Shown here: piece by piece, positions 12,196 through 47,605 of the stretch
Numbering within the stretch: the stretch's first letter is position 1
Layout: every line of letters starts with the position of its first letter
Assembly: GCA_964229765.1 (NCBI GenBank)
Contig: CAXREJ010000051.1
Location: 52,662 to 116,661 of the forward strand
Direction of reading: 5' to 3'
DNA from: Bdellovibrionales bacterium
GTDB lineage: Bacteria > Bdellovibrionota > Bdellovibrionia > Bdellovibrionales > JAGQZY01
DNA length: 64,000 nt
Program-made: the position numbers and the translations under genes
Notes under the pieces: model-generated
Told to the model about the DNA's origin: nothing
What the model saw: only the letters and a program-made list of their open reading frames with translations
Databases searched by the model: none

Positions 12196-15135
12196 ATGAC
12201 ATTTTTTATATTGTTTATTGTTTTCCTATCGGGGTTAACAGGTCTAATTTATCAAGTGACATGGCAAAAATATTTATCCATTTACTTAGGAAGTCATTCC
12301 CTATCAGCCTCTTTAACTTTGTCCTGTTTTTTTCTCTTTTTGGCATTAGGGTATCAAATTATTGGCAAGAGTGGTCATAAATTAGGAAAAAATAAAATAC
12401 GAACCTATGCTTATTTAGAGGGGTTTATCGGAGTTTTTGCTATTATGTCTCCTGCGATCTTTGATTTTTTCTATCAGATCTGGCCTTCTTACCCTTCGAT
12501 ATCAATAGGACATTTTTTAAGTAGTGCTTTTTTTGCGTTAATTCTAATTGGGCTGCCGACCTTTTTAATGGGGGGGACTATTCCATTATTAACACAAGGT
12601 TTGAGTAAGGAATTGGAAGCAAGTCACAGGGTTCATGCTTGGGTTTATGGTGTAAACACACTCGGGGCCTTTATTGGAACAATGCTAGGTGGATTCTTTC
12701 TGTTGGAGTTTTTGGGACTTTCTCAGTCTCTCAATTTAACAGGAATGTTGAATTGTATAATATGCTTAGTTCTTATTGTTTTTTGTAAGTACTCAAAAAG
12801 AGACTTTCAAGGTTTTGCACCGGGAGAGGGGAAGAAAAATAAAGGTTACAATTATATCTTGTTAAGTTTGGCTTTTTTATCTGGGGCAATTTCATTCGGA
12901 CTTGAAAATCTTATAATTAGAATGGCTGGGATTTCTATTGGTAGTTCAAATTATACATACACTGTCATTGTTGGAGCTTTTGTTTGTTCCATAGCATTGG
13001 GTAGTATATTAGCCGCTAAAGTAAAAAACAAAGTAGGACTTTGGTGGTTGTTAGTTAGCCAATTGTTTATTCTTACTTCAGTGAGTTTTTTCACCTTTAT
13101 TATCCCTTCATGGCCTCGTATTTTTATGAGAGTACGCTTTCTATTTGCGAATTCTGAAATTAATTTTGTCCCGTATTGGGTCAGTGTCTTTTTTGTATTC
13201 TTTATTATTGTTTTAATTCCTGTTGTTTTTTTAGGGATGACTCTTCCGCTCTTATTTCAACAGTTAAAAAGTAAAAACGAACATTTGAACCGCACCGCAG
13301 GAATTATGTACGCCATTAATTCTATTGGAGCCGCTGTTGGATCTATTTTTTTAGGATACATAGCCTTCTTCTGGATGGATGCACAAGAAGTTTTAAAGTT
13401 AATAGGCTCGTTGACTGTGTTAAGTTGCATCTTGGTTATTAACTTATTTGAAAGGAAGAATAAGAAATTTGTTTTTGTTCTACCGATCTTGTTATTTGTG
13501 ATTCTATTCTTTCTGCCAAAATGGAAAGATTATTCATTTGTTCCCAATCGATTTTTCAGCTCTTCTGTAACACCGAAAACCAGACAAGATTACCAGATGA
13601 TTGTTGATAAGTTCGAAATTGAGTCTCCCCGTGATACAAAAATTCTATACTCAGACTTTGGAGTTAACACATACACTGTCGTAACAGAAGATTTAAAAGG
13701 AGATCGAACTGTTTTTGTAAATGGAAAACCTGATGCAGCCACTAATGGTGATCAATTCACACGTGCGTTAACAGCCTTGATACCTTTAACATTGGCGAAA
13801 AATAACCAAGATATTTTTATCGTTGGTTTAGGCTCGGGATTAAGTGCTGGAATTGCAGCCAGTTTTCCTGGCAACAAGAGTGTTAAAGTTACGGAAATTG
13901 CATCTGGGGTTATAAAGGCTCTCCCTTATTTTGATAAATGGAATTTTGATTTAAAAAGCAATAGGAAAAAAATTACTATTCTCAATGATGATGCTTATAA
14001 AGTCCTGATAAATGAAGATAAAAAGTATGATTTAATTTTCTCAGAACCTAGTAATACTTGGGTCACCGGTGTGGAAAAGATATACACTTTGGAGTTCTTG
14101 AAACAGGCTTCAAGTAAGCTTAAAGAAGATGGTATCTACTCGCAATGGTTTCCCTTGTTTTCTATGACTGAGCAAGGTTTTTTGAGTGTACTATATAATT
14201 TTAAAAAATCCTTTAAATATGTCAGTTTGTGGAGCGCACTTGGTAGTGCTTCCGTGATAATTGCTAGTAATTCCCCCATTGATGTGACTCCAGAAAATCT
14301 AATGATGAAAAGCCAAGGGGCTGAAGAGATTTACAAAACAGTTGGTATCAAAGATGGATTATCATTGCTTTATCATCAATTACTTCCTGATGCGGCTGTA
14401 ACGGACTTGGCGAACGGCTCTCATTTAATCCATAGCCTTTATCATCCCACATTGGCTTATCAATCAGGTCGAGCTTTCTTTTTAAGTGGTTTTATTAATC
14501 CCGAGGAATTGGCAAATAAGTATTTTGTTTACAGTAAGAATGAAAAACTATTACGCGCTGAAGATCAAATCTCTCAGGACAGAGTGCTTTCTTTTGGTGA
14601 TGATGAGCTTATTTGGGAAAAATATTTAGATCAACTGCCTAAAAGCTTTTTTGATGAAGGAGCTAAGTTTTTATTAAAAGTACATCCAATTTATGCAGGC
14701 AAATTATCGCTGGCGAGGCCTGATAAATTCGGAAAAAAAGTGTTACATGGTGTTGATGAAAAGCTATCTGTGGCTAAGAGGAAAATGACACAGTATCGTT
14801 ATTTATTGGGTAAAAGCAATAGAACTTTACCACCAAAAGTTAATGAAGAGTTATTCCTTGGAACAGAGCTTTTCAATCGTTTTATTTATTTAATAGCTAT
14901 GAGAGAGAAGCCTCAATTAGATAAATTGCTTAAGGCCATGCCGATTAAGTGTATTGACTTTGAGTCAGAGTGTCTAAAGATAAAATTAGAAATTCTATTT
15001 TTTCTCAATCCACATTTAAAAAATGAAGTTCGCTCTTTAAGCCTTGCTATTCATCAAAATAAGAGAGGAAGTAAAGAAGAGGTGGACAGTCTTTTTAAAC
15101 GACATGTTATAGATAAAGAGGGGGAAATTAGATAG
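12196..15135 (+). CDS. Fused polytopic membrane domain / spermidine-synthase-like (class I methyltransferase-fold aminopropyltransferase) protein
   Basis: 979 aa. The first ~450 aa are multi-TM. Then come a SAM/dcSAM-type fold (IFIVGLGSGLSAG, DLIFSEPSNTW) and a long C-terminal extension. Confidence 0.6.
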   Translation: MTFFILFIVFLSGLTGLIYQVTWQKYLSIYLGSHSLSASLTLSCFFLFLALGYQIIGKSGHKLGKNKIRTYAYLEGFIGVFAIMSPAIFDFFYQIWPSYPSISIGHFLSSAFFALILIGLPTFLMGGTIPLLTQGLSKELEASHRVHAWVYGVNTLGAFIGTMLGGFFLLEFLGLSQSLNLTGMLNCIICLVLIVFCKYSKRDFQGFAPGEGKKNKGYNYILLSLAFLSGAISFGLENLIIRMAGISIGSSNYTYTVIVGAFVCSIALGSILAAKVKNKVGLWWLLVSQLFILTSVSFFTFIIPSWPRIFMRVRFLFANSEINFVPYWVSVFFVFFIIVLIPVVFLGMTLPLLFQQLKSKNEHLNRTAGIMYAINSIGAAVGSIFLGYIAFFWMDAQEVLKLIGSLTVLSCILVINLFERKNKKFVFVLPILLFVILFFLPKWKDYSFVPNRFFSSSVTPKTRQDYQMIVDKFEIESPRDTKILYSDFGVNTYTVVTEDLKGDRTVFVNGKPDAATNGDQFTRALTALIPLTLAKNNQDIFIVGLGSGLSAGIAASFPGNKSVKVTEIASGVIKALPYFDKWNFDLKSNRKKITILNDDAYKVLINEDKKYDLIFSEPSNTWVTGVEKIYTLEFLKQASSKLKEDGIYSQWFPLFSMTEQGFLSVLYNFKKSFKYVSLWSALGSASVIIASNSPIDVTPENLMMKSQGAEEIYKTVGIKDGLSLLYHQLLPDAAVTDLANGSHLIHSLYHPTLAYQSGRAFFLSGFINPEELANKYFVYSKNEKLLRAEDQISQDRVLSFGDDELIWEKYLDQLPKSFFDEGAKFLLKVHPIYAGKLSLARPDKFGKKVLHGVDEKLSVAKRKMTQYRYLLGKSNRTLPPKVNEELFLGTELFNRFIYLIAMREKPQLDKLLKAMPIKCIDFESECLKIKLEILFFLNPHLKNEVRSLSLAIHQNKRGSKEEVDSLFKRHVIDKEGEIR

Positions 15136-16310
15136 TGAGAATACTTCTAGTGACCTCTGAGCCACCACTGCCTATGGGACATGTCTCAGCTCGTTGGTTC
15201 TACGTGCTTTTAAAGGAAATGCATATTCATGGTCATCAAGTGGATGTATTGTCTTCCTATTCAAAAGAAGAAGAGTATGAAATATCATCTCAATTATTAT
15301 CACATTTTGATGGAGTTCGTTTTTTTGCCTATCCTTTCGATAGGAGAAATGGGATTGTTGAAAAAGTTAATTCATTTGTGAGTCCAGGCTCTTATCAATT
15401 TTCCAAAGAATTCGTAAAAAAATATCAATTGCTGACTAAAGAAGCGGACATGATTCATTGTGAGCAGCTATCAACAGCCATGGTGTCGTCTACTACAAAA
15501 GCTCAACCTATTGTGGTTAATATCCATCATTTGTTTTCAGTGGATTTAGCTGATGAAAAAATCTATTCACTTAAAGAAGGACTAATTAGAAAGAGGCAGT
15601 TCGTAAATGAGAAAAAAATAATAAAAAAGTTAAATTATGCAACGACAGTGAGTTCTGAGCTTGGGAGGCATTTAAAAAAAATAAATCCAAAAATTAATAC
15701 GGAGTGGATTCCATTTTCATTGAGCTTTGATGAATATCAGGTGGAGGAGCGAGAAAGGGTTTATGATTTTGGTTTAGTCGGCAATATGAATTGGTTCCCT
15801 TCTTTTTCCGCAGCGGTTAATGTGATTGAAAAAATATGGCCTAGTGTAATAAAGAAATGTCCGACGGCTAAGCTCTTGGTCGCAGGTTGGGGTGCTGATA
15901 CAAAACTGTCTCAATATAAAGATACTCCAGGACTAACGCTTTTATCAGATGCACCTTCAATACTTGAGGTTTTTAACTCCATAGGTACTTTGCTCTATTT
16001 TCCTAATAAAGGGTCAGGGGTAAAAGTTAAAATACTTGAAGCCTTATTGATGAAGTGTGCCGTGATTACCAATGAGGCGGGGGTTGAGGGCTTGCACCCG
16101 CAAGTTATACAAAACATAAATGTTTGTAACAACCTTCAGGAATTCATAAGTTCAGCCATTAATGTTAATCAAGATCATATTAAAAGAGATGAACAAGGAT
16201 CCTTAGGGCGAGAGAGTGTTTTGAAGAATCATAGCTCAAAAGAGAGTTACGATAAGCTTATGTCTTTTCATGGTAATGCGAGTGCATCTTTTCGAGTTAA
16301 AAGAGAGTGA
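15135..16310 (+). CDS. Glycosyltransferase, GT-B fold (family 1/4-like)
   Basis: 391 aa with a GTG start overlapping the upstream stop. N-terminus MRILLVTSEPP and a C-terminal E-x7-E-like region (KILEALLMKCAVITNEAGVEG). Confidence 0.7.
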   Translation: MRILLVTSEPPLPMGHVSARWFYVLLKEMHIHGHQVDVLSSYSKEEEYEISSQLLSHFDGVRFFAYPFDRRNGIVEKVNSFVSPGSYQFSKEFVKKYQLLTKEADMIHCEQLSTAMVSSTTKAQPIVVNIHHLFSVDLADEKIYSLKEGLIRKRQFVNEKKIIKKLNYATTVSSELGRHLKKINPKINTEWIPFSLSFDEYQVEERERVYDFGLVGNMNWFPSFSAAVNVIEKIWPSVIKKCPTAKLLVAGWGADTKLSQYKDTPGLTLLSDAPSILEVFNSIGTLLYFPNKGSGVKVKILEALLMKCAVITNEAGVEGLHPQVIQNINVCNNLQEFISSAINVNQDHIKRDEQGSLGRESVLKNHSSKESYDKLMSFHGNASASFRVKRE

Positions 16311-16380: not shown

Positions 16381-17154
16381 TTAATGGTCAAGGTTGTCAG
16401 CTAAATAGAGATGACGTTTTTCTTTACTTGCTAGGTTTAATTGAATTCTAGCCACTTCTTCGTTGGACCTATTAGCAAGAATAAGGTCGCATTTAGAGGT
16501 GACAATAAAACCACTCTTTTTGTTTGTGTTTAAATTATAGATGGGTGCAATGTTTTGGAAATTTATATTAATGACCAAAAGCTGCGATGATTCAACTTCT
16601 TCAACGGTGTGTTCTGGTATGTTACATGGTCGATATTCATCAGAGCTTTGAGTGAGAGTGGTTCCTATAATTTCATGACAATATTGATCAATTAAGGGGA
16701 GCCTTTTGTAACGCTGACTCCAAGGAATACAGCGAATTTCTTCAATCGAGTGAGAGCAAATTTCCATATAGCGTAGATTATACCAAATATGTGTGCCATT
16801 GAGAGCATAGACTTCGACGATTTCATCAGAGTCGAACATATCGAGAGAGTTGGCTCCAAGTCGGTGTCCACAGTTCTGTAAAACTCGCCATAAAAATTGC
16901 TTCTCTTGTTTTAAATCATAGTTTTCTGAAGTCAGACTGAGCCATGTGTTCAAGTACTCTTTGGTTTCATTGAGAACTCTTATTTTTGTTTGAATGGGTA
17001 GTTGGCTGTAGATGGGTAACTTTGGGTTAGAATAGGGAAGGGCTTGAGCCTTAGGAAAGGTGTGATTTGTAAGCTCTGCGAGCTTATGCAATACAGACTT
17101 GAATTCATCTTTGATCTTCTCATCAGTGTTATTGATTTTTCGTGAAAATTTCAA
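16381..17154 (-). CDS. Hypothetical cytoplasmic protein with a PAS-like segment
   Basis: 257 aa with no signal peptide. DEIVEVYALNGTHIWYNLRYMEICSHSIEEI resembles the PAS core pattern (d.i.v.d..g.i...N..f....g.s.eE). This is a weak call. Confidence 0.35.
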   Translation of the reverse strand: MKFSRKINNTDEKIKDEFKSVLHKLAELTNHTFPKAQALPYSNPKLPIYSQLPIQTKIRVLNETKEYLNTWLSLTSENYDLKQEKQFLWRVLQNCGHRLGANSLDMFDSDEIVEVYALNGTHIWYNLRYMEICSHSIEEIRCIPWSQRYKRLPLIDQYCHEIIGTTLTQSSDEYRPCNIPEHTVEEVESSQLLVININFQNIAPIYNLNTNKKSGFIVTSKCDLILANRSNEEVARIQLNLASKEKRHLYLADNLDH

Positions 17155-17229
17155 AATGTCCTCGTTATAGTAGTAGTGTTTATGTTTACACTATCTACAT
17201 ATAACGGGAGTTAAAGATTAAATCAATAA

Positions 17230-17949
17230 TTAGGCGGCTCTATTTTCCATTGGATTCTTTAATGATTCGGGTTGGAAAACCAATAAATCCTTCCATAAGT
17301 ATTGATATTGCTCAACAACTTCTAAACAAGCGGGAGGTGTTTTGGAGGTGTCTTCAATGAAAAGCATTCTCACAGACTCTCCATCAATAATTGGTAATTT
17401 GAACTCAGAGAGAACCTCTTTACCACCTAAGTATTCAAAATATTTATCTATTTTAAACTTTGTTACGCCACAAGTGATCCAGCGAGGAATATCAAACTGC
17501 TGATGATAGCTTAATGCGTAAGCAGTGGTGAGATCTCTGAGCCATTTGCAAAACTCTCTTCCTTTTTGTTTGTAAACAGGGTTGATGGTCCAAGAAGAGT
17601 CATATGTGATTTCTCGGCCATCATTTAAAATATTCTCAACTATGGGAGAGTTTTCGTACTCTGTTCCCTTGAGGAGCTTTAAAAGTGGAAATTGAATTTT
17701 GAATCTTTGGCATTGAGAGAGTCTGATGGACTTGTACATAAACATAGGTTCAAGTTCTCCATTTTCAAGCTCTTCCGCGGCAATAAGATGAGAGGCTACA
17801 AAGTCATCCTCCCCCATTGGTAATACATTAGACTTGTATTCTTGTCTGTAGCCAAGTTCTTTGGCCCAGAGTGCTTTTTGCCAAAGTTTAAGAGCTTTTT
17901 CATTATAAATATGGATAGGCTCATCGATTAAAACAAATTGAACTTTCAT
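17230..17949 (-). CDS. Hypothetical protein, possibly a GNAT-fold acyl-transferase of the LuxI/FeeM (N-acyl synthase) type
   Basis: 239 aa. Only the spacing pattern resembles LuxI: EDDF..SHLIA near aa 47, then a WTINP..K.KG block, then WITCGVT...YFEYLG. It lies 19 nt downstream of the preceding gene. Confidence 0.3.
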   Translation of the reverse strand: MKVQFVLIDEPIHIYNEKALKLWQKALWAKELGYRQEYKSNVLPMGEDDFVASHLIAAEELENGELEPMFMYKSIRLSQCQRFKIQFPLLKLLKGTEYENSPIVENILNDGREITYDSSWTINPVYKQKGREFCKWLRDLTTAYALSYHQQFDIPRWITCGVTKFKIDKYFEYLGGKEVLSEFKLPIIDGESVRMLFIEDTSKTPPACLEVVEQYQYLWKDLLVFQPESLKNPMENRAA

Positions 17950-17968
17950 TGATAGGTTCTCCTCAGAA

Positions 17969-18610
17969 TTAAGCTGTTTTTGCTAGTTGATGGTTGTCCT
18001 TCTGGCTTATATTTTGAAGAATGCTAATATAGAGGTCAGCGTACTGGTCGAGGGCTAGTTCAACAACATGTTGATCTTCAGGTGAAAGAACATCAATCAT
18101 TTTGAAAGCTTTTTCTAAATGATCAGGGTCTTCATTGGAGTGAACTTTTAAGAATGAGGCTGCCTTAGGTCCATGGGCTTCGCGCGCATGATTGTAAGCG
18201 TACTCTCCAGATCTAACCGCCGCTCCTTCTAAAGCAAATATCCATCCAAAGAGTCCAACAACATTGCCTTGGTGAGATAGCCAGTAATAAAGACTTTGGT
18301 GGAAAAACTTCATGGCATTTGTTGGGGGTATATCACTGACTTTAAGATCAAGAGCTTTTAAATCATTTTCTAGAAGTTTTTCATGTCCCTTTTCTTCGGT
18401 AGCATGGGCTACAAAACGATTAGATAAAGTCGTGTATTTTTGAGGCATCACGGCGGCCGCATAAGCCAGTATACGAGTTGAGTTGAGAACGTACTCATGA
18501 GTGTCCCTTAACCATTGAGTGTAACAATGTGGGTCACTCCACGGGAAAGAGCAAAGAGCTTCGTTAATTTTAGTCATATTTTTTTCAAACGTATCTCTAA
18601 ATTGATTCAC
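17969..18610 (-). CDS. Heme-oxygenase-like di-metal oxidase/oxygenase (HDO; CADD/PqqC/TenA-like fold)
   Basis: 213 aa all-helical protein with a GTG start after AGGAGG. Candidate ligand motifs occur in HDO order: ATEEKGHEKL (E...H), FALEGAA (E) and HSNEDPDH (H..D/E..H). Confidence 0.55.
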   Translation of the reverse strand: MNQFRDTFEKNMTKINEALCSFPWSDPHCYTQWLRDTHEYVLNSTRILAYAAAVMPQKYTTLSNRFVAHATEEKGHEKLLENDLKALDLKVSDIPPTNAMKFFHQSLYYWLSHQGNVVGLFGWIFALEGAAVRSGEYAYNHAREAHGPKAASFLKVHSNEDPDHLEKAFKMIDVLSPEDQHVVELALDQYADLYISILQNISQKDNHQLAKTA

Positions 18611-18844
18611 TAGTATCCTCCTAATACAAAGTTTTCTTATATCCTATCAAAAGTGATGATCGGAGGAGTACGAGAAAGAGTGATAAACTAGAAAATGGTC
18701 AAATAACTATTAGTTAGTCCATTAAATTGAAATGATTTAAGTTGATTTTTAGGCCTAAAGTTTGACATGATGATAAAATACAATTTATTTGTGATTATAC
18801 TTTAGGCAATTTTAATAAAAGAGGTGTTGTAAAAGGTAAGTTAA

Positions 18845-19135
18845 TTACGCGGTCTGGGTTTTAGTCTTTAAGCCCATTTCTTTAGCCCAGATCTTTTTTC
18901 TATAATCGGTGAAAGTATCAAGAAGATCATAGCGAGGGACTTTATAAAGTTTAGACATTTTAGCTAAAACATTCATAGGGGGCCAACAAGTGCCACGTTC
19001 AATGTTAGAGATAAATTGGGCATTTGAGTGACCGCAGGCTTCAGCCACTGTCATTTGTGTTACTCCAGCGTCTTTTCTGAATTTTTTTAAACGTTCACCA
19101 AAAGCTGTACAAAGTTTTTTTTCATAAGTATTCAT
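18845..19135 (-). CDS. XRE-family helix-turn-helix transcriptional regulator
   Basis: 96 aa; the HTH is VTQMTVAEACGHSNAQFISNIERG. Confidence 0.8.
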   Translation of the reverse strand: MNTYEKKLCTAFGERLKKFRKDAGVTQMTVAEACGHSNAQFISNIERGTCWPPMNVLAKMSKLYKVPRYDLLDTFTDYRKKIWAKEMGLKTKTQTA

Positions 19136-19590
19136 GGCTGTCTCAAAGCTCCTTAAATATAAGATACTGTCAATTTCCTACAAATTAGACCAAAGGGCAA
19201 AGGAATTGTAAAAAATAGTACAAATGTAACATTACGTCACTCAACGTAATTTTTCTTTGTATTGTTTAAAAGTGCTGTGATCGAGTCAGTTGAAAAAATA
19301 AAAAATATTACTTTACTTGACTGAAGCGACTTTGGGGGGGGGCGGTTAGGTAGTATAGGTGAAATATCTTGAAGCGACGCCATTCAGTAGATTAACTGAA
19401 TTTAATCCCATTTGATCACAAGGAGGAAGAACCTAAAGCTAAAATGATCTGTTGATATGGTTGACGTTACTAGTAAGACAAAGGTCTGGCGCTTAATTGT
19501 TCTCTGTTTTTCCTAAAAACTAAATTGTCTTTCATTTCAGTTAATTTGAAATTATGGTCTCCTTATTTATGAGTAAAACTTTGGAGAGAG

Positions 19591-20556
19591 TTGATGGATG
19601 AGTTTGCATTGATAAATAAGCTGGTTTCACCAATCCATAATAAGGAAGGGGTGATTTTGGGGAGAGGAGATGATTGTAGTATTGTTGATTTTTCCCAAAA
19701 TGAATATCTAGTTCAAACGACAGATTGTTTAGTTCAAGACATACACTTTCGTACACAAACAATGACGGCCTCGGAAATAGCAAAAAAAACTTTACTGGTT
19801 AATATGAGTGATATTTCTGCCATGGGGGCAAGGCCTCATTGGTGTCATTTGAGCTTGGCCGTTCCTAAAAATATTCAAGAAAGTTGGGTTGAAGATTTTT
19901 TTCAGGCTTTAAATGATTCTTTACAAGATAATAATATTCAACTTTTAGGAGGAGATTTATCACAAAGTCCTCGTGATATTTTTATAAATGTTCATCTCAG
20001 TGGTAAGGTGAAAAAAGATCATGTGAAAAAAAGGGAAGGATTAGGGAAACCTTCGGTTCTTTTAGTAACAGGTCCTTTAGGGGATTCTTCTGCAGGATTG
20101 TTTTGTTTAGAGAATCAAGTTGAGGGCTTTCCACTACTTGTTGGAGCCCATAAGTCGCCACCGAATGAGTCTCAAAAAGCCATTTGGTTATCAAAGCAAA
20201 GTGAAGTGTTAGGGCTTATGGACTTGTCAGATGGACTTTTAAGCGATTTGGAAAGAATTCCCACGGGATTTTTGAATGTTGATTTAAATAAAATCCCACA
20301 TTCAACCGACTTAGAAAAGTTTTGTAACTTGAAGAATTTTGATCCGATGAGGTTTTCGATTGCTGGTGGAGAAGATTATGTTCTCTTATTGTCTTGTAAA
20401 AAAGAGAAGGTGAGTCGTCTTTGTTCTCATTTTCAAAAAGAGTTCGGAGAGGAACTCTATGCTATCGGGGAAGTGCTCGAGGGAGATAAAAAAGTTTTGT
20501 TTTTTAAAGATGGTAAAGAGTGTGTTCCCACTTATAAAAAGTTTTCTCACTTTTGA
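19591..20556 (+). CDS. thiL: Thiamine-monophosphate kinase
   Basis: AIR-synthase-fold motifs: GDDCSIV, DIHF, LVNMSDISAMGA, GGDL and AGGEDYVLL. Confidence 0.85.
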   Translation: MMDEFALINKLVSPIHNKEGVILGRGDDCSIVDFSQNEYLVQTTDCLVQDIHFRTQTMTASEIAKKTLLVNMSDISAMGARPHWCHLSLAVPKNIQESWVEDFFQALNDSLQDNNIQLLGGDLSQSPRDIFINVHLSGKVKKDHVKKREGLGKPSVLLVTGPLGDSSAGLFCLENQVEGFPLLVGAHKSPPNESQKAIWLSKQSEVLGLMDLSDGLLSDLERIPTGFLNVDLNKIPHSTDLEKFCNLKNFDPMRFSIAGGEDYVLLLSCKKEKVSRLCSHFQKEFGEELYAIGEVLEGDKKVLFFKDGKECVPTYKKFSHF

Positions 20557-20675: not shown

Positions 20676-22127
20676 TCAGAAAGATCTTCTCCAACGATTG
20701 ATTCTTTCTCCCCAAGATAAGCTAAAGTCTGATGTCTGTTTTTTTCTCCACTGACCGGCCACTGATTTATTGATTTCCATTAATGTCGGATATGTATGAA
20801 TAGTGCTTAATATTTTATTCAAGCCTATATTGTGTTTCATGGCTAAAACATATTCAGTAATAAGCTCTCCTGCGCGCGGTCCCACAATAGTAACACCGAG
20901 AACCTTATCTTTGCCTGGGGGGGTCAGAACTTTGATGAAGCCTTTAGCTTCTTCATCGGTGATGGCTCGATCAGAGTCTTTAATAGAATAACTAGTGACT
21001 TGATAGGGAATATTTTGTTGATGGGCCTCTTTCTCATTGAGGCCCACTCGTGCCACTTCTGGATCAATGTAAGTCGCACGTGGAATAATATGATAGTTAA
21101 CTTTAAAGCCCCAGAAGGGTTGGATCATAGAGTTCACGGCGCAATACCAAGCTTGGTGTGAGGCTGTGTGCGTGAATTGATAGGGACCAGCTACATCACC
21201 GCAAGCATAGATATTTTTATAGTTAATTGTGCGAAGATACTTATCCACTTGAATAGTGCCATTGGGATTGAGTGGAACATCAAGGTGGTTTAGGCCAAAC
21301 CCTTCAGTATTAGGTTTGCGTCCAAGGGCTAATAAAATGCAGTCACTTTCAATCTCTTGGTTTTGACCATTTTGTTTATAGGTAATGTATTGCTTACCCT
21401 TGTAGATCCTAAAGCCTGTTACGGAACAGTTGAGTTTCAAATTTATATTTTCGTCACGAAAAGATTGAGTAACAGAGTCAGAAACATCTGAGTCCTCGTT
21501 GCTTAAAAGTGAGCTCTGATTCTCTATAATAGTCACAGAAATTCCAAGGCGAGAAAAGGCCTGGCTCAGTTCACAGCCAATAGGTCCTCCTCCGATTATT
21601 GTCATTTTTTTTGGTTTTTCTCGAAGACTCCAAATAGTGTCAGAAGTGTAGAGTTTAACTTTTTCTTTTCCTGGCCAATCAGGCAGGAAGGGGTGGGCAC
21701 CAGTGGCTATGGTAATATTTTTGGTTGAAAGTATTTGATCATTAACTTGTATTTCGTGGGGAGATAAAATAGTGGCCTGGCCTTGATAGCAATCCACTCC
21801 TAGGCTTGTATAGCGTTCGACAGAATCATGTGGTTCGATGGATTTAATGATTCTTTGAATTCGGTTCATGATGTCTGAAAATTCAAACTCGACATGAGTT
21901 TTTTTGAAGCCAAGTTTTGATGACCTTTGAGTATCATAGAGAAATTTAGCCGAGCGGATGAGGGCTTTACTGGGAACACAGCCTGTATTTAAGCAGTCGC
22001 CTCCCATCTTGTTTTTTTCTATGAGAGCCACTTTTGCTTTAGTGGCAGCACATATGTAGGATGTGACTAATCCTGCGGAGCCGGCACCTATGGTAACCAT
22101 ATTATATTCATACTTTGACATTTTCAT
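20676..22127 (-). CDS. FAD-dependent pyridine nucleotide-disulfide oxidoreductase (dihydrolipoamide dehydrogenase / mercuric-reductase-like)
   Basis: Dinucleotide fold MVTIGAGSAGLV, redox-active GGDCLNTGCVPSK, second GxGxxG IIGGGPIGCE, and a C-terminal dimerisation HTYPTL. I use the internal Met (MKMSKYEY) as the start because the longer ORF start lies inside the upstream gene. Confidence 0.8.
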   Translation of the reverse strand: MKMSKYEYNMVTIGAGSAGLVTSYICAATKAKVALIEKNKMGGDCLNTGCVPSKALIRSAKFLYDTQRSSKLGFKKTHVEFEFSDIMNRIQRIIKSIEPHDSVERYTSLGVDCYQGQATILSPHEIQVNDQILSTKNITIATGAHPFLPDWPGKEKVKLYTSDTIWSLREKPKKMTIIGGGPIGCELSQAFSRLGISVTIIENQSSLLSNEDSDVSDSVTQSFRDENINLKLNCSVTGFRIYKGKQYITYKQNGQNQEIESDCILLALGRKPNTEGFGLNHLDVPLNPNGTIQVDKYLRTINYKNIYACGDVAGPYQFTHTASHQAWYCAVNSMIQPFWGFKVNYHIIPRATYIDPEVARVGLNEKEAHQQNIPYQVTSYSIKDSDRAITDEEAKGFIKVLTPPGKDKVLGVTIVGPRAGELITEYVLAMKHNIGLNKILSTIHTYPTLMEINKSVAGQWRKKQTSDFSLSWGERINRWRRSF

Positions 22128-22824
22128 GGCCTTTCTTTTTACGAACCTTACCCATAGTTTTTTTAATAAGAACTGGAACAAGTCCTAAAGCAATAAATGA
22201 AATGAGAACGGAGGGGGTTAGAATTCCTTGTAGAGAGTTAATTTGAGAGAGTTGGGTTCCAGCATTTACATAGATTAAAGTTCCAGGCAACATCCCTATT
22301 TGACTAACAATAAAAAAGGTGGAGGTTCTCATTGAAGTTAAACCCATGACGAGATTGATTATAAAAAAGGGAACAACAGGAATAAGTCTAAGACTAAAAA
22401 GATAAAAGGCTCCTTCGTCACGAACGCCTTTGTTAATCTTTTTTATGGAACGGCGAAACTGTTTTTCAACCCATTCGCGTAATAGATAGCGAGCCGATAA
22501 AAAGGCAAGAGTTGCCCCGATAGTGCTGGCAAAGGAAATAATAAGGGTGCCGAGAATTACTCCGAAAAGAGCTCCTCCAAGAAGAGTGAGGATAACAGCA
22601 CCTGGAATAGACAAAGCAATACTGAAAATGTAGATTATCATATAAACGGCAATAGTTTGAAGCGGGTGATTTTGATAGTAATCCATAAAGTCACCTTGTT
22701 TAGACTTTATGGATTCCAGGGTCATGTAGTGATGTAAATCGAAAATGTAGATCAGTGCGACAAGGCCGATGGCGCCTGCAAAAAGTAAATACCTACCTAT
22801 ATTATTCATAAAACATCCTTGCAT
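22108..22824 (-). CDS. TVP38/TMEM64 (DedA/SNARE-associated) family membrane protein
   Basis: 238 aa polytopic protein. LLGGALFG and F..SRLIPVVPF..INLVMG are DedA-type motifs. Its 3' end overlaps the oxidoreductase start. Confidence 0.75.
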   Translation of the reverse strand: MQGCFMNNIGRYLLFAGAIGLVALIYIFDLHHYMTLESIKSKQGDFMDYYQNHPLQTIAVYMIIYIFSIALSIPGAVILTLLGGALFGVILGTLIISFASTIGATLAFLSARYLLREWVEKQFRRSIKKINKGVRDEGAFYLFSLRLIPVVPFFIINLVMGLTSMRTSTFFIVSQIGMLPGTLIYVNAGTQLSQINSLQGILTPSVLISFIALGLVPVLIKKTMGKVRKKKGHENVKV

Positions 22825-47461: not shown

Positions 47462-47605
47462 ATAGCATTATTTATCTATTGTTTTAAAGTTTCATTTTAA
47501 TCCTCTTCTATGAAAGAAGTGCCTAAGCAATTGATTTTCATTTTAAGTTCCTCGTTGACTTAGTGAATATCACATTGGAAAAGAGCTGCTGAATAGGGGG
47601 GGGAT

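Follow-up and report, generated by a model that had tools for sequence, protein, structure and literature searches.

A 64,000-nucleotide stretch of DNA from a Bdellovibrionales bacterium (contig CAXREJ010000051.1; the whole stretch is hereafter called the window) carries on its minus strand a cassette of about 2.2 kb, in which a putative acyl-amide synthase of GNAT-superfamily fold lies beside a heme-oxygenase-like di-metal oxidase/oxygenase (HDO), a PAS-fold protein, and an XRE-family regulator. This acyltransferase, HDO, PAS, and XRE set, conserved among uncultured bacteria of predatory type, probably makes and controls an acylated small molecule. In the order of transcription, the locus consists of:

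18845-19135, minus strand: XRE-family helix-turn-helix (HTH) regulator, 96 amino acids (aa), ATG start
18611-18844, minus strand: spacer between the XRE and HDO genes, 234 nt
17969-18610, minus strand: HDO, 213 aa, GTG start
17230-17949, minus strand: GNAT-superfamily protein with LuxI/FeeM-like fold, 239 aa, ATG start
16381-17154, minus strand: PAS-fold protein, 257 aa, TTG start

An earlier interpretation made from the letters of the window and its open reading frames (ORFs), the sequence-only reading, had placed four minus-strand genes at these coordinates with spacers of 234, 19, and 75 nt between them, and both the genes and the spacers agree with the ORF list. The 239-aa gene begins 19 nt past the HDO stop codon, and Shine-Dalgarno-like ribosome-binding sequences of the AGGAGG or GAGGAG type can be read ahead of the HDO and 239-aa starts; the GNAT-like and HDO genes are probably translationally coupled. 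Since each of the four genes has full-length homologues on other contigs, they are judged to be real, and chance ORFs are excluded. The G+C content of the cassette (36-37%) is unremarkable within the window range of 34-42%. All named relatives of the cassette proteins come from Bdellovibrionota or Bdellovibrionales metagenome-assembled genomes (MAGs).

The 213-aa protein is a member of Pfam family PF14518, Haem_oxygenas_2 (E 2.6e-11; 44.1 bits, with a gathering score of 28.9). Its only solved sequence relative is PDB entry 3dde, a protein of heme-oxygenase-like fold and function not known, which is matched at E 2.3e-4 by the single sequence and at E 2.3e-13 by the family profile. Residues H69, E72, E73, H76, E128, H157, D161, and H164 are invariant across the HDO and its homologues (8 sequences from related loci, 39-51% identity), and the ligand columns HxxEExxH, E, and H-x3-D-x2-H align with the same positions of 3dde. 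The ExxxH / E / HxxD..H pattern with all six metal ligands, which the sequence-only reading had assigned to this protein, is therefore retained. Three His and three carboxylates on core helices constitute the defining ligand set of HDOs, as given in a 2026 review (PMC13108848), and the sequence of the 213-aa protein is predicted to supply this primary set. The pattern of its last ligand helix, H157-x3-D161-x2-H164, has spacing identical to that of the triad His311/Asp315/His318 on core helix 3 of SznF (PMC7848743). UndA, BesC, HrmI, AetD, and CADD likewise share the three-His/three-carboxylate set, in which the last ligand helix carries H-x3-D-x2-H. On sequence grounds, the 213-aa protein is an HDO with the full ligand set, for which binding of Fe2 or Fe/Mn and activation of O2 are predicted. 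The family profile matched only 3dde in the PDB and did not reach the characterized HDOs UndA, BesC, SznF, and CADD; for this reason, a reaction type cannot be transferred from them. As a separate observation, Ala is the C-terminal residue in 5 of 8 partner HDOs, 3 of which end in -AA, and the HDO of the window ends in ...AKTA.

The assignment of the 239-aa protein as LuxI/FeeM-like held for the fold and not for the sequence, where no method links it to either family. An AlphaFold2 model, built from an alignment of ten relatives found by word-indexed search, has a mean predicted local distance difference test score (pLDDT) of 90.8 and a predicted template modeling score (pTM) of 0.88. These ten relatives share 44-63% identity with the protein, and the sole named one belongs to a Bdellovibrionota MAG. 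When the model was compared with the PDB by Foldseek, the best match was the N-acyl amino acid synthase FeeM (2g0b; E 1.4e-6; query and target template modeling (TM) scores of 0.53 and 0.65, respectively). FeeM chains 2g0b_C, G, D, B, and A occupy ranks 1, 3, 4, 5, and 7 (E 1.4e-6 to 6.7e-6; target TM 0.63-0.68), LasI (1ro5) stands second in the list (E 1.8e-6), and BjaI, TofI, MesI, and RpaI are also matched (E 7e-6 to 8e-5). The model thus has the GNAT-derived alpha/beta fold shared by the acyl-homoserine lactone (AHL) synthases, and the 239-aa protein is, as modeled, of GNAT fold and leans slightly toward the LuxI/FeeM branch.

At the level of sequence, the 239-aa protein has no Pfam match at E<=1, no NCBIfam match, and no PDB match by phmmer, and 10 distant members of its family are likewise unassigned by Pfam and NCBIfam. 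In a set of 60 diverse members, not one matches the Autoind_synth or GNAT Pfam models, even at E<=10, and a PDB search with the family profile retrieves neither LuxI nor FeeM (2g0b) chains at E<=10. LuxI-family proteins conserve an N-terminal Arg/Phe/Trp/Asp cluster and an E-x-S-R motif, represented in LasI by R23, F27, W33, D44, D47, R70, E101, and R104. Alignment of the 239-aa family with the verified LasI sequence by hhalign was not significant (probability 0.3%, E 0.18); in this unreliable alignment, D48/D49 fall opposite the LasI D44/D47 region and YDSSW falls opposite ELSRF, with Trp at R104.

In an exhaustive profile search, the representatives of 549 clusters (50% identity) scored at E<=1e-3 and those of 425 at E<=1e-10; the former number is a lower bound for the family. 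Almost all representatives are 235-265 aa in length and match end to end. The family signature includes K30, Y34, D49, H54, an ISYDSSW strand, and G175. In a 24-sequence alignment inspected by eye, the Q/R-x-x-G-x-G/A loop that binds the coenzyme A (CoA) pyrophosphate after strand beta-4 is not conserved; the segment following ISYDSSWTI is NPxYRxxKE, without a conserved Gly-x-Gly/Ala. The lack of a classical GNAT CoA loop fits the LuxI/FeeM branch better than classical GNATs. Taken together with the model, these results mark the 239-aa family as a branch of the GNAT fold that is orphan in sequence and has not been described before. The C-termini of its members are also distinctive: among 157 full-length members, 132 end in Ala, 100 in -AA, and 24 in -VA, the commonest tails being KKAA and K-x-A-A, with an overall Ala frequency in the family of 6.7%. 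The protein of the window ends in ...ENRAA (17230-17238). The conserved -AA tail is possibly a C-terminal recognition signal, a candidate ssrA-like ClpXP degron.

The pairing of the two enzyme genes was followed across related loci, which were collected by contig look-ups and locus scans; every ORF of these loci was then screened with profiles, and duplicate contigs were removed. About 15 independent loci were covered in total, from a family of several hundred clusters, and nine of these belong to the HDO-linked group (the window, L001, L004, L007, L008, L009, L015, L016, and the truncated L019). Co-occurrence of the HDO and 239-aa genes, as anticipated by the sequence-only reading, is borne out in all nine, where the two are adjacent on the same strand, in either order, with a spacer of -20 to +44 nt. 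A homologue of the PAS protein is present in 8/8 loci on contigs long enough to tell. The arrangement varies around this core. In the window, the order is XRE, HDO, GNAT, and PAS on one strand, whereas in L008 all four genes run in the order XRE, GNAT, HDO, and PAS. L001 and L009 have GNAT and HDO in one direction, followed by PAS and XRE genes on the opposite strand, such that the two pairs converge and the XRE gene precedes PAS. In L004, GNAT, HDO, and PAS run together toward an XRE gene of opposite orientation, and in L007 the PAS gene diverges from GNAT and HDO. The flanking genes are wholly different between loci, and the proteins themselves have diverged; between L001 and the window, identity is 54% for GNAT, 46% for HDO, 28% for PAS, and 33% for XRE. 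Shared genes in varied order between unrelated flanks are strong evidence of a functional unit, the core of which is GNAT, HDO, and PAS.

Transporter and thiotemplate genes, which the sequence-only reading had not seen nearby, are indeed absent from the ORFs adjoining the cassette in the window. Likewise, no carrier-protein, ligase, or transporter gene is conserved near the cassette in the compared loci, as expected for a LuxI-like enzyme that uses primary acyl pools. A genome scan with the 239-aa family alignment gave four Bdellovibrionota MAG loci, one of which is L001; a metagenome scan for cassette loci returned duplicates only, and no relatives of the cassette were found on viral contigs.

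Outside the HDO-linked group, the family keeps different company. Six loci of distant members (L010, L011, L013, L014, L021, and the P0021 contig) contain neither an HDO nor a PAS protein. In five of the six, L021 being the exception, one or two genes for proteins of ~270-310 aa meet the synthase-like gene tail-to-tail; these proteins form two paralogous groups (L010, 2407-3853; L011, 5732-7047; L013, 5751-7525; L014, 5696-7532). The N-terminus of these partners is an XRE-type HTH, matched by Pfam HTH_3 and HTH_31 and, in PDB profile searches, by HipB, C.BclI, and ImmR. The C-terminal domain has weak similarity to V4R and contains three invariant Cys, including a C-x3-GD-x2-C-type motif. The second partner is shortened to an HTH-only protein in L010 (174 aa) and L011 (99 aa). 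No description of this XRE-HTH/V4R-like regulator family was found in the literature. The pairing of the wider family with XRE-type ligand-binding regulators amounts to a synthase/receptor-pair architecture. A neighbor-joining tree of 60 members unites the HDO-linked proteins in a single subclade of 13 sequences, from which every member known to be HDO-less is absent. From these gene contents and the tree, the wider family appears to be linked to ligand-binding transcription factors, and the present clade to have acquired the HDO and PAS genes secondarily. The HDO-linked clade can be read as having swapped a V4R-like sensor for the PAS protein. Two further features of these loci were observed. 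Two paralogous GNAT-like copies lie within 3 kb in both L013 (2331-3065 and 5001-5768) and L021 (3-224 and 1393-2184), and between the copies of L021 there is a gene for a 273-aa protein that weakly matches KaiA_N (pseudo-receiver-like); an RHS-repeat protein is encoded thereafter.

The 257-aa protein has very few relatives (a homology search gave 4 proteins), and it has no Pfam or NCBIfam match at E<=1, PAS profiles included. Its model contains three long N-terminal helices (region ~3-94) followed by a PAS-fold domain (~97-226), in which the C-terminal core has the order beta-beta-alpha-alpha-alpha-beta-beta-beta. By Foldseek, the ~125 C-terminal residues match the PAS-B domains of HIF-2a, ARNT, and BMAL1 and the FAD-binding PAS domain of NifL (E 3e-5 to 1e-3; target-normalized TM 0.6-0.76), and the Aer PAS domain is also among the fold matches. 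The PAS-like core proposed for this protein from its sequence is thus substantiated by solved PAS domains, with their antiparallel sheet of five strands and its flanking helices. Homology of the PAS protein to the ~300-aa V4R-like regulators was considered and ruled out by BLASTP and hhalign (probability 0.07%).

The XRE protein exceeds the curated Pfam cut-offs for HTH_31 (36.9 bits; cut-off 27), HTH_19 (32.8; 30.2), and HTH_3 (29.5; 23), confirming its designation as an XRE regulator; its other matches are to the generic HTH of antitoxin, controller-protein, and repressor models. The DNA around and within the cassette contains several inverted repeats that could serve in regulation:

18753-18807, minus strand: perfect 9-bp inverted repeat GCCTAAAGT-N37-ACTTTAGGC, bracketing a TATAAT hexamer; candidate promoter/operator
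19231-19250: perfect palindrome ATTACGT-N6-ACGTAAT, ~95 nt upstream of the XRE start; candidate operator
19382-19401: palindrome ATTCAGT-N6-ACTGAAT, of the same 7-N6-7 geometry; candidate operator
17163-17206: perfect 7-bp inverted repeat CGTTATA-N30-TATAACG, in the 75-nt GNAT-PAS spacer (17155-17229), just upstream of the TTG start

An exact match to ATTACGT-N6-ACGTAAT occurs once in the window, and the number of palindromes in the window is within chance if any spacing is allowed. The CGTTATA-N30-TATAACG repeat could be an attenuator, an internal regulatory site, or a chance occurrence. A consensus promoter scan did not pick up the 18753-18807 repeat or its TATAAT, and the scan for promoters and terminators was uninformative, with fewer matches than in shuffled sequence. 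Neither an Rfam family nor a convincing small ORF turned up in the intergenic regions of the cassette. A run of nine G on the plus strand, read as C9 along the genes, occupies 19334-19342, inside the 455 nt that separate the XRE gene from the divergent ORF at 19591. The only other G/C run of >=8 in the window is at 47596-47603, in a genome of ~38% G+C. This G9 run could be a slipped-strand phase-variation site.

The cassette is best explained as a module for acyl-amide synthesis, oxidative tailoring, and regulation, to which a probability of roughly one half is given, and it is possibly a new signaling system. In this scheme, the GNAT-like enzyme would move a fatty or other acyl group from acyl-acyl carrier protein or acyl-CoA to an amine, either an amino acid or S-adenosylmethionine as in LuxI, to form an N-acyl amide. 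The HDO would use O2 to tailor this amide, for example by UndA- and BesC-like oxidative decarboxylation or desaturation, or by SznF- and HrmI-like N-oxygenation; alternatively, the HDO may make an unusual amine that is later acylated. The product would be diffusible and read by the PAS protein and the XRE regulator, which would control the cassette from 18611-18844 and 19136-19590, while proteolysis directed by the -AA tail would limit the lifetime of the synthase. The earlier proposal of a compact synthesis-plus-control cassette is supported in that the fold, the six ligands, and the co-conservation of the genes all speak for it; its signal-synthesis and sensing components are conditional. 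A more ambitious version of the scheme, in which the 239-aa family comprises unrecognized LuxI-fold signal synthases with XRE-type receptors, is considered rather unlikely. Under this version, the family would form a new synthase/receptor signaling class in uncultured bacteria, predatory Bdellovibrionota among them, and the HDO in the present clade would remodel the acyl-amide, for example to an enamide or N-oxygenated acyl amide, for a PAS receptor, with ClpXP-type degradation through -AA.

Several results weigh against the module of synthesis, tailoring, and regulation. The Foldseek TM scores of the 239-aa model are moderate (0.43-0.55 on the query) with generic N-acetyltransferases close behind, and as a consequence the acyl-chain length and the acceptor are not fixed by the fold; nor is there any sequence-level tie of the family to LuxI, FeeM, or a GNAT model. 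The model of the 257-aa protein, derived from a 4-sequence alignment, is of moderate confidence only (pLDDT 74.3, pTM 0.70), and neither profiles, model, nor Foldseek detected a DNA-binding or other output domain in it. A homologue of the window XRE gene is found in 5/8 loci and is missing from L007, L015, and L016, and the candidate operators neither recur in related loci nor have statistical support. The PAS protein co-occurs strictly with the HDO and not with the XRE gene, a distribution that an enzymatic accessory role fits equally well. The 'sensor' role of the PAS protein is accordingly not secure, and this is the chief uncertainty of the scheme. This last point leads to an explanation with the same enzymology, in which the PAS protein would assist the HDO, serving in flavin or redox electron delivery or as a carrier of substrate or product, and regulation would fall to the XRE protein alone or to outside factors. 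Its distribution favors this, as the PAS gene accompanies the HDO in 8/8 loci, is missing from every locus of the HDO-less branch, and occurs without an XRE gene in the three loci named above. The missing output domain points the same way, as do the fold matches to the FAD-binding NifL PAS and Aer PAS domains and the external reducing equivalents that HDOs need according to the 2026 review (PMC13108848). However, in L001 and L009 the PAS gene is directly downstream of the XRE gene on the strand opposite the enzyme genes, resembling a regulatory pair, and the best fold matches of the PAS protein are ligand-binding PAS-B domains. No flavin-binding motif was identified in the PAS protein, and PAS partners are not described for known HDO systems in the passages of that review covered here (PMC13108848). 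On balance, an accessory PAS protein is considered rather unlikely, a smaller chance than that of the full module.

The product may also be a specialized metabolite without a signaling role, for example a surfactant of the N-acyl amino-acid type, an aminolipid of the membrane, or an antibiotic of use to a predator. The XRE and PAS proteins would then respond to another cue (O2, redox state, or prey contact). O2 and redox state are common cues of PAS domains, the HDO depends on O2, and autoinduction of the cassette is hypothetical. FeeM-type enzymes and TyzA give bioactive lipids and no autoinducers (PMC10404671). Against a non-signal product stands the family-wide pairing of the synthase gene with a ligand-binding transcription factor, which is typical of synthase/receptor pairs. 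Classical two-chain aminolipids require a second O-acyltransferase (OlsA/OlsB), yet no such gene is conserved at the compared loci, and no resistance or export genes are conserved there. A non-signal product is rated slightly below the accessory-PAS explanation, as doubtful. A GNAT-toxin/XRE-antitoxin pair or an anti-phage defense module is far less probable than either. GNAT toxins such as TacT and AtaT exist, and the XRE protein weakly matches the HTH of HipB-type and other antitoxins and the HTH/control-protein models of PADLOC. The three non-HTH proteins, however, have no PADLOC match and no relatives on viral contigs, and the GNAT-like protein is ~240 aa with fold matches to amide synthases, as opposed to the ~170 aa of tRNA-acetylating toxins. 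Moreover, the XRE gene is missing in 3/8 loci and is often on the opposite strand or parted from the GNAT gene by others, for example the HDO gene, which is not the obligatory adjacent bicistronic layout of toxin-antitoxin pairs. A toxin-antitoxin or defense function is essentially excluded.

Considered as a module of acyl-amide synthesis, tailoring, and regulation, the cassette resembles known systems in part. FeeM (2g0b) is the best structural match of the 239-aa protein, which is ~40-50 residues longer and has no detectable sequence similarity to it. The closest structural homologues of TyzA are FeeM and BjaI, and TyzA is a verified N-acyl amino acid synthase that feeds tailoring enzymes (PMC10404671). 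TyzA, too, was recognized only through its FeeM/BjaI-like fold (PMC10404671), which provides a precedent for reading function from such a fold. Like the 239-aa protein, FeeM and TyzA are single-domain GNAT-fold enzymes encoded beside tailoring enzymes without a dedicated carrier protein. The ISYDSSW signature and the C-terminal K-x-A-A tail set the 239-aa family apart from both, and the tailoring partner here is an HDO, in contrast to the ThiF-like and nitroreductase enzymes of the Mycobacterium tuberculosis tyz cluster.

The second-best structural matches, LasI, TofI, BjaI, MesI, and RpaI, are the synthases of LuxI/LuxR systems. As with luxI/luxR, the synthase gene adjoins genes for a protein of ligand-binding fold and for a transcription factor, and the tail-to-tail placement of synthase and regulator genes in the wider family likewise recurs in many luxI/luxR pairs. 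Unlike LuxI/LuxR, the synthase does not belong to Autoind_synth, the place of LuxR is taken by XRE-type regulators with a PAS or V4R-like domain, and members of this clade have an HDO as their obligatory partner. A small XRE HTH lies beside a ligand-binding fold here, whereas in the sister branch the two are fused as an HTH-V4R-like protein of ~300 aa. The GNAT-like gene is linked to XRE in 5/8 and to PAS in 8/8 loci, and to XRE-HTH/V4R-like genes in sister-branch loci L010, L011, L013, L014, and P0021, with the status of these partners as cognate being presumptive. In a full-text literature search of incomplete coverage, no paper was found that couples an HDO with a LuxI/FeeM-fold or N-acyl amino acid synthase, or an XRE/V4R-type receptor with a LuxI/FeeM-type synthase.

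The novelty of the locus would lie in the sequence family and in the pairing of enzymes, while an acyl-amide synthase with tailoring and regulation is of a known kind. If the proposed function is true, an unannotated enzyme family would join the short list of acyl-amide and autoinducer synthase types, one that is invisible to Pfam, NCBIfam, and antiSMASH-style rules. The locus would also provide the first heme-oxygenase-like di-iron enzyme hard-wired to an acyl-amide or autoinducer synthase, extending HDO chemistry to acyl-amide substrates. Bdellovibrionota genomes have been reported without predicted AHL synthases (10.1101/2020.11.01.364414), and the cassette would represent a candidate for chemical communication or prey-related chemistry in this phylum.

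The cassette is bordered by a convergent glycosyltransferase-like ORF at 15135-16310 (plus strand) and a divergent ORF at 19591-20556 (plus strand). Beyond the latter, two minus-strand ORFs, 20676-22181 (501 aa) and 22108-22824 (238 aa), overlap by 74 nt as listed. The true start of the 501-aa ORF is probably at a later codon, as an internal MSKYEY... is visible in its translation.

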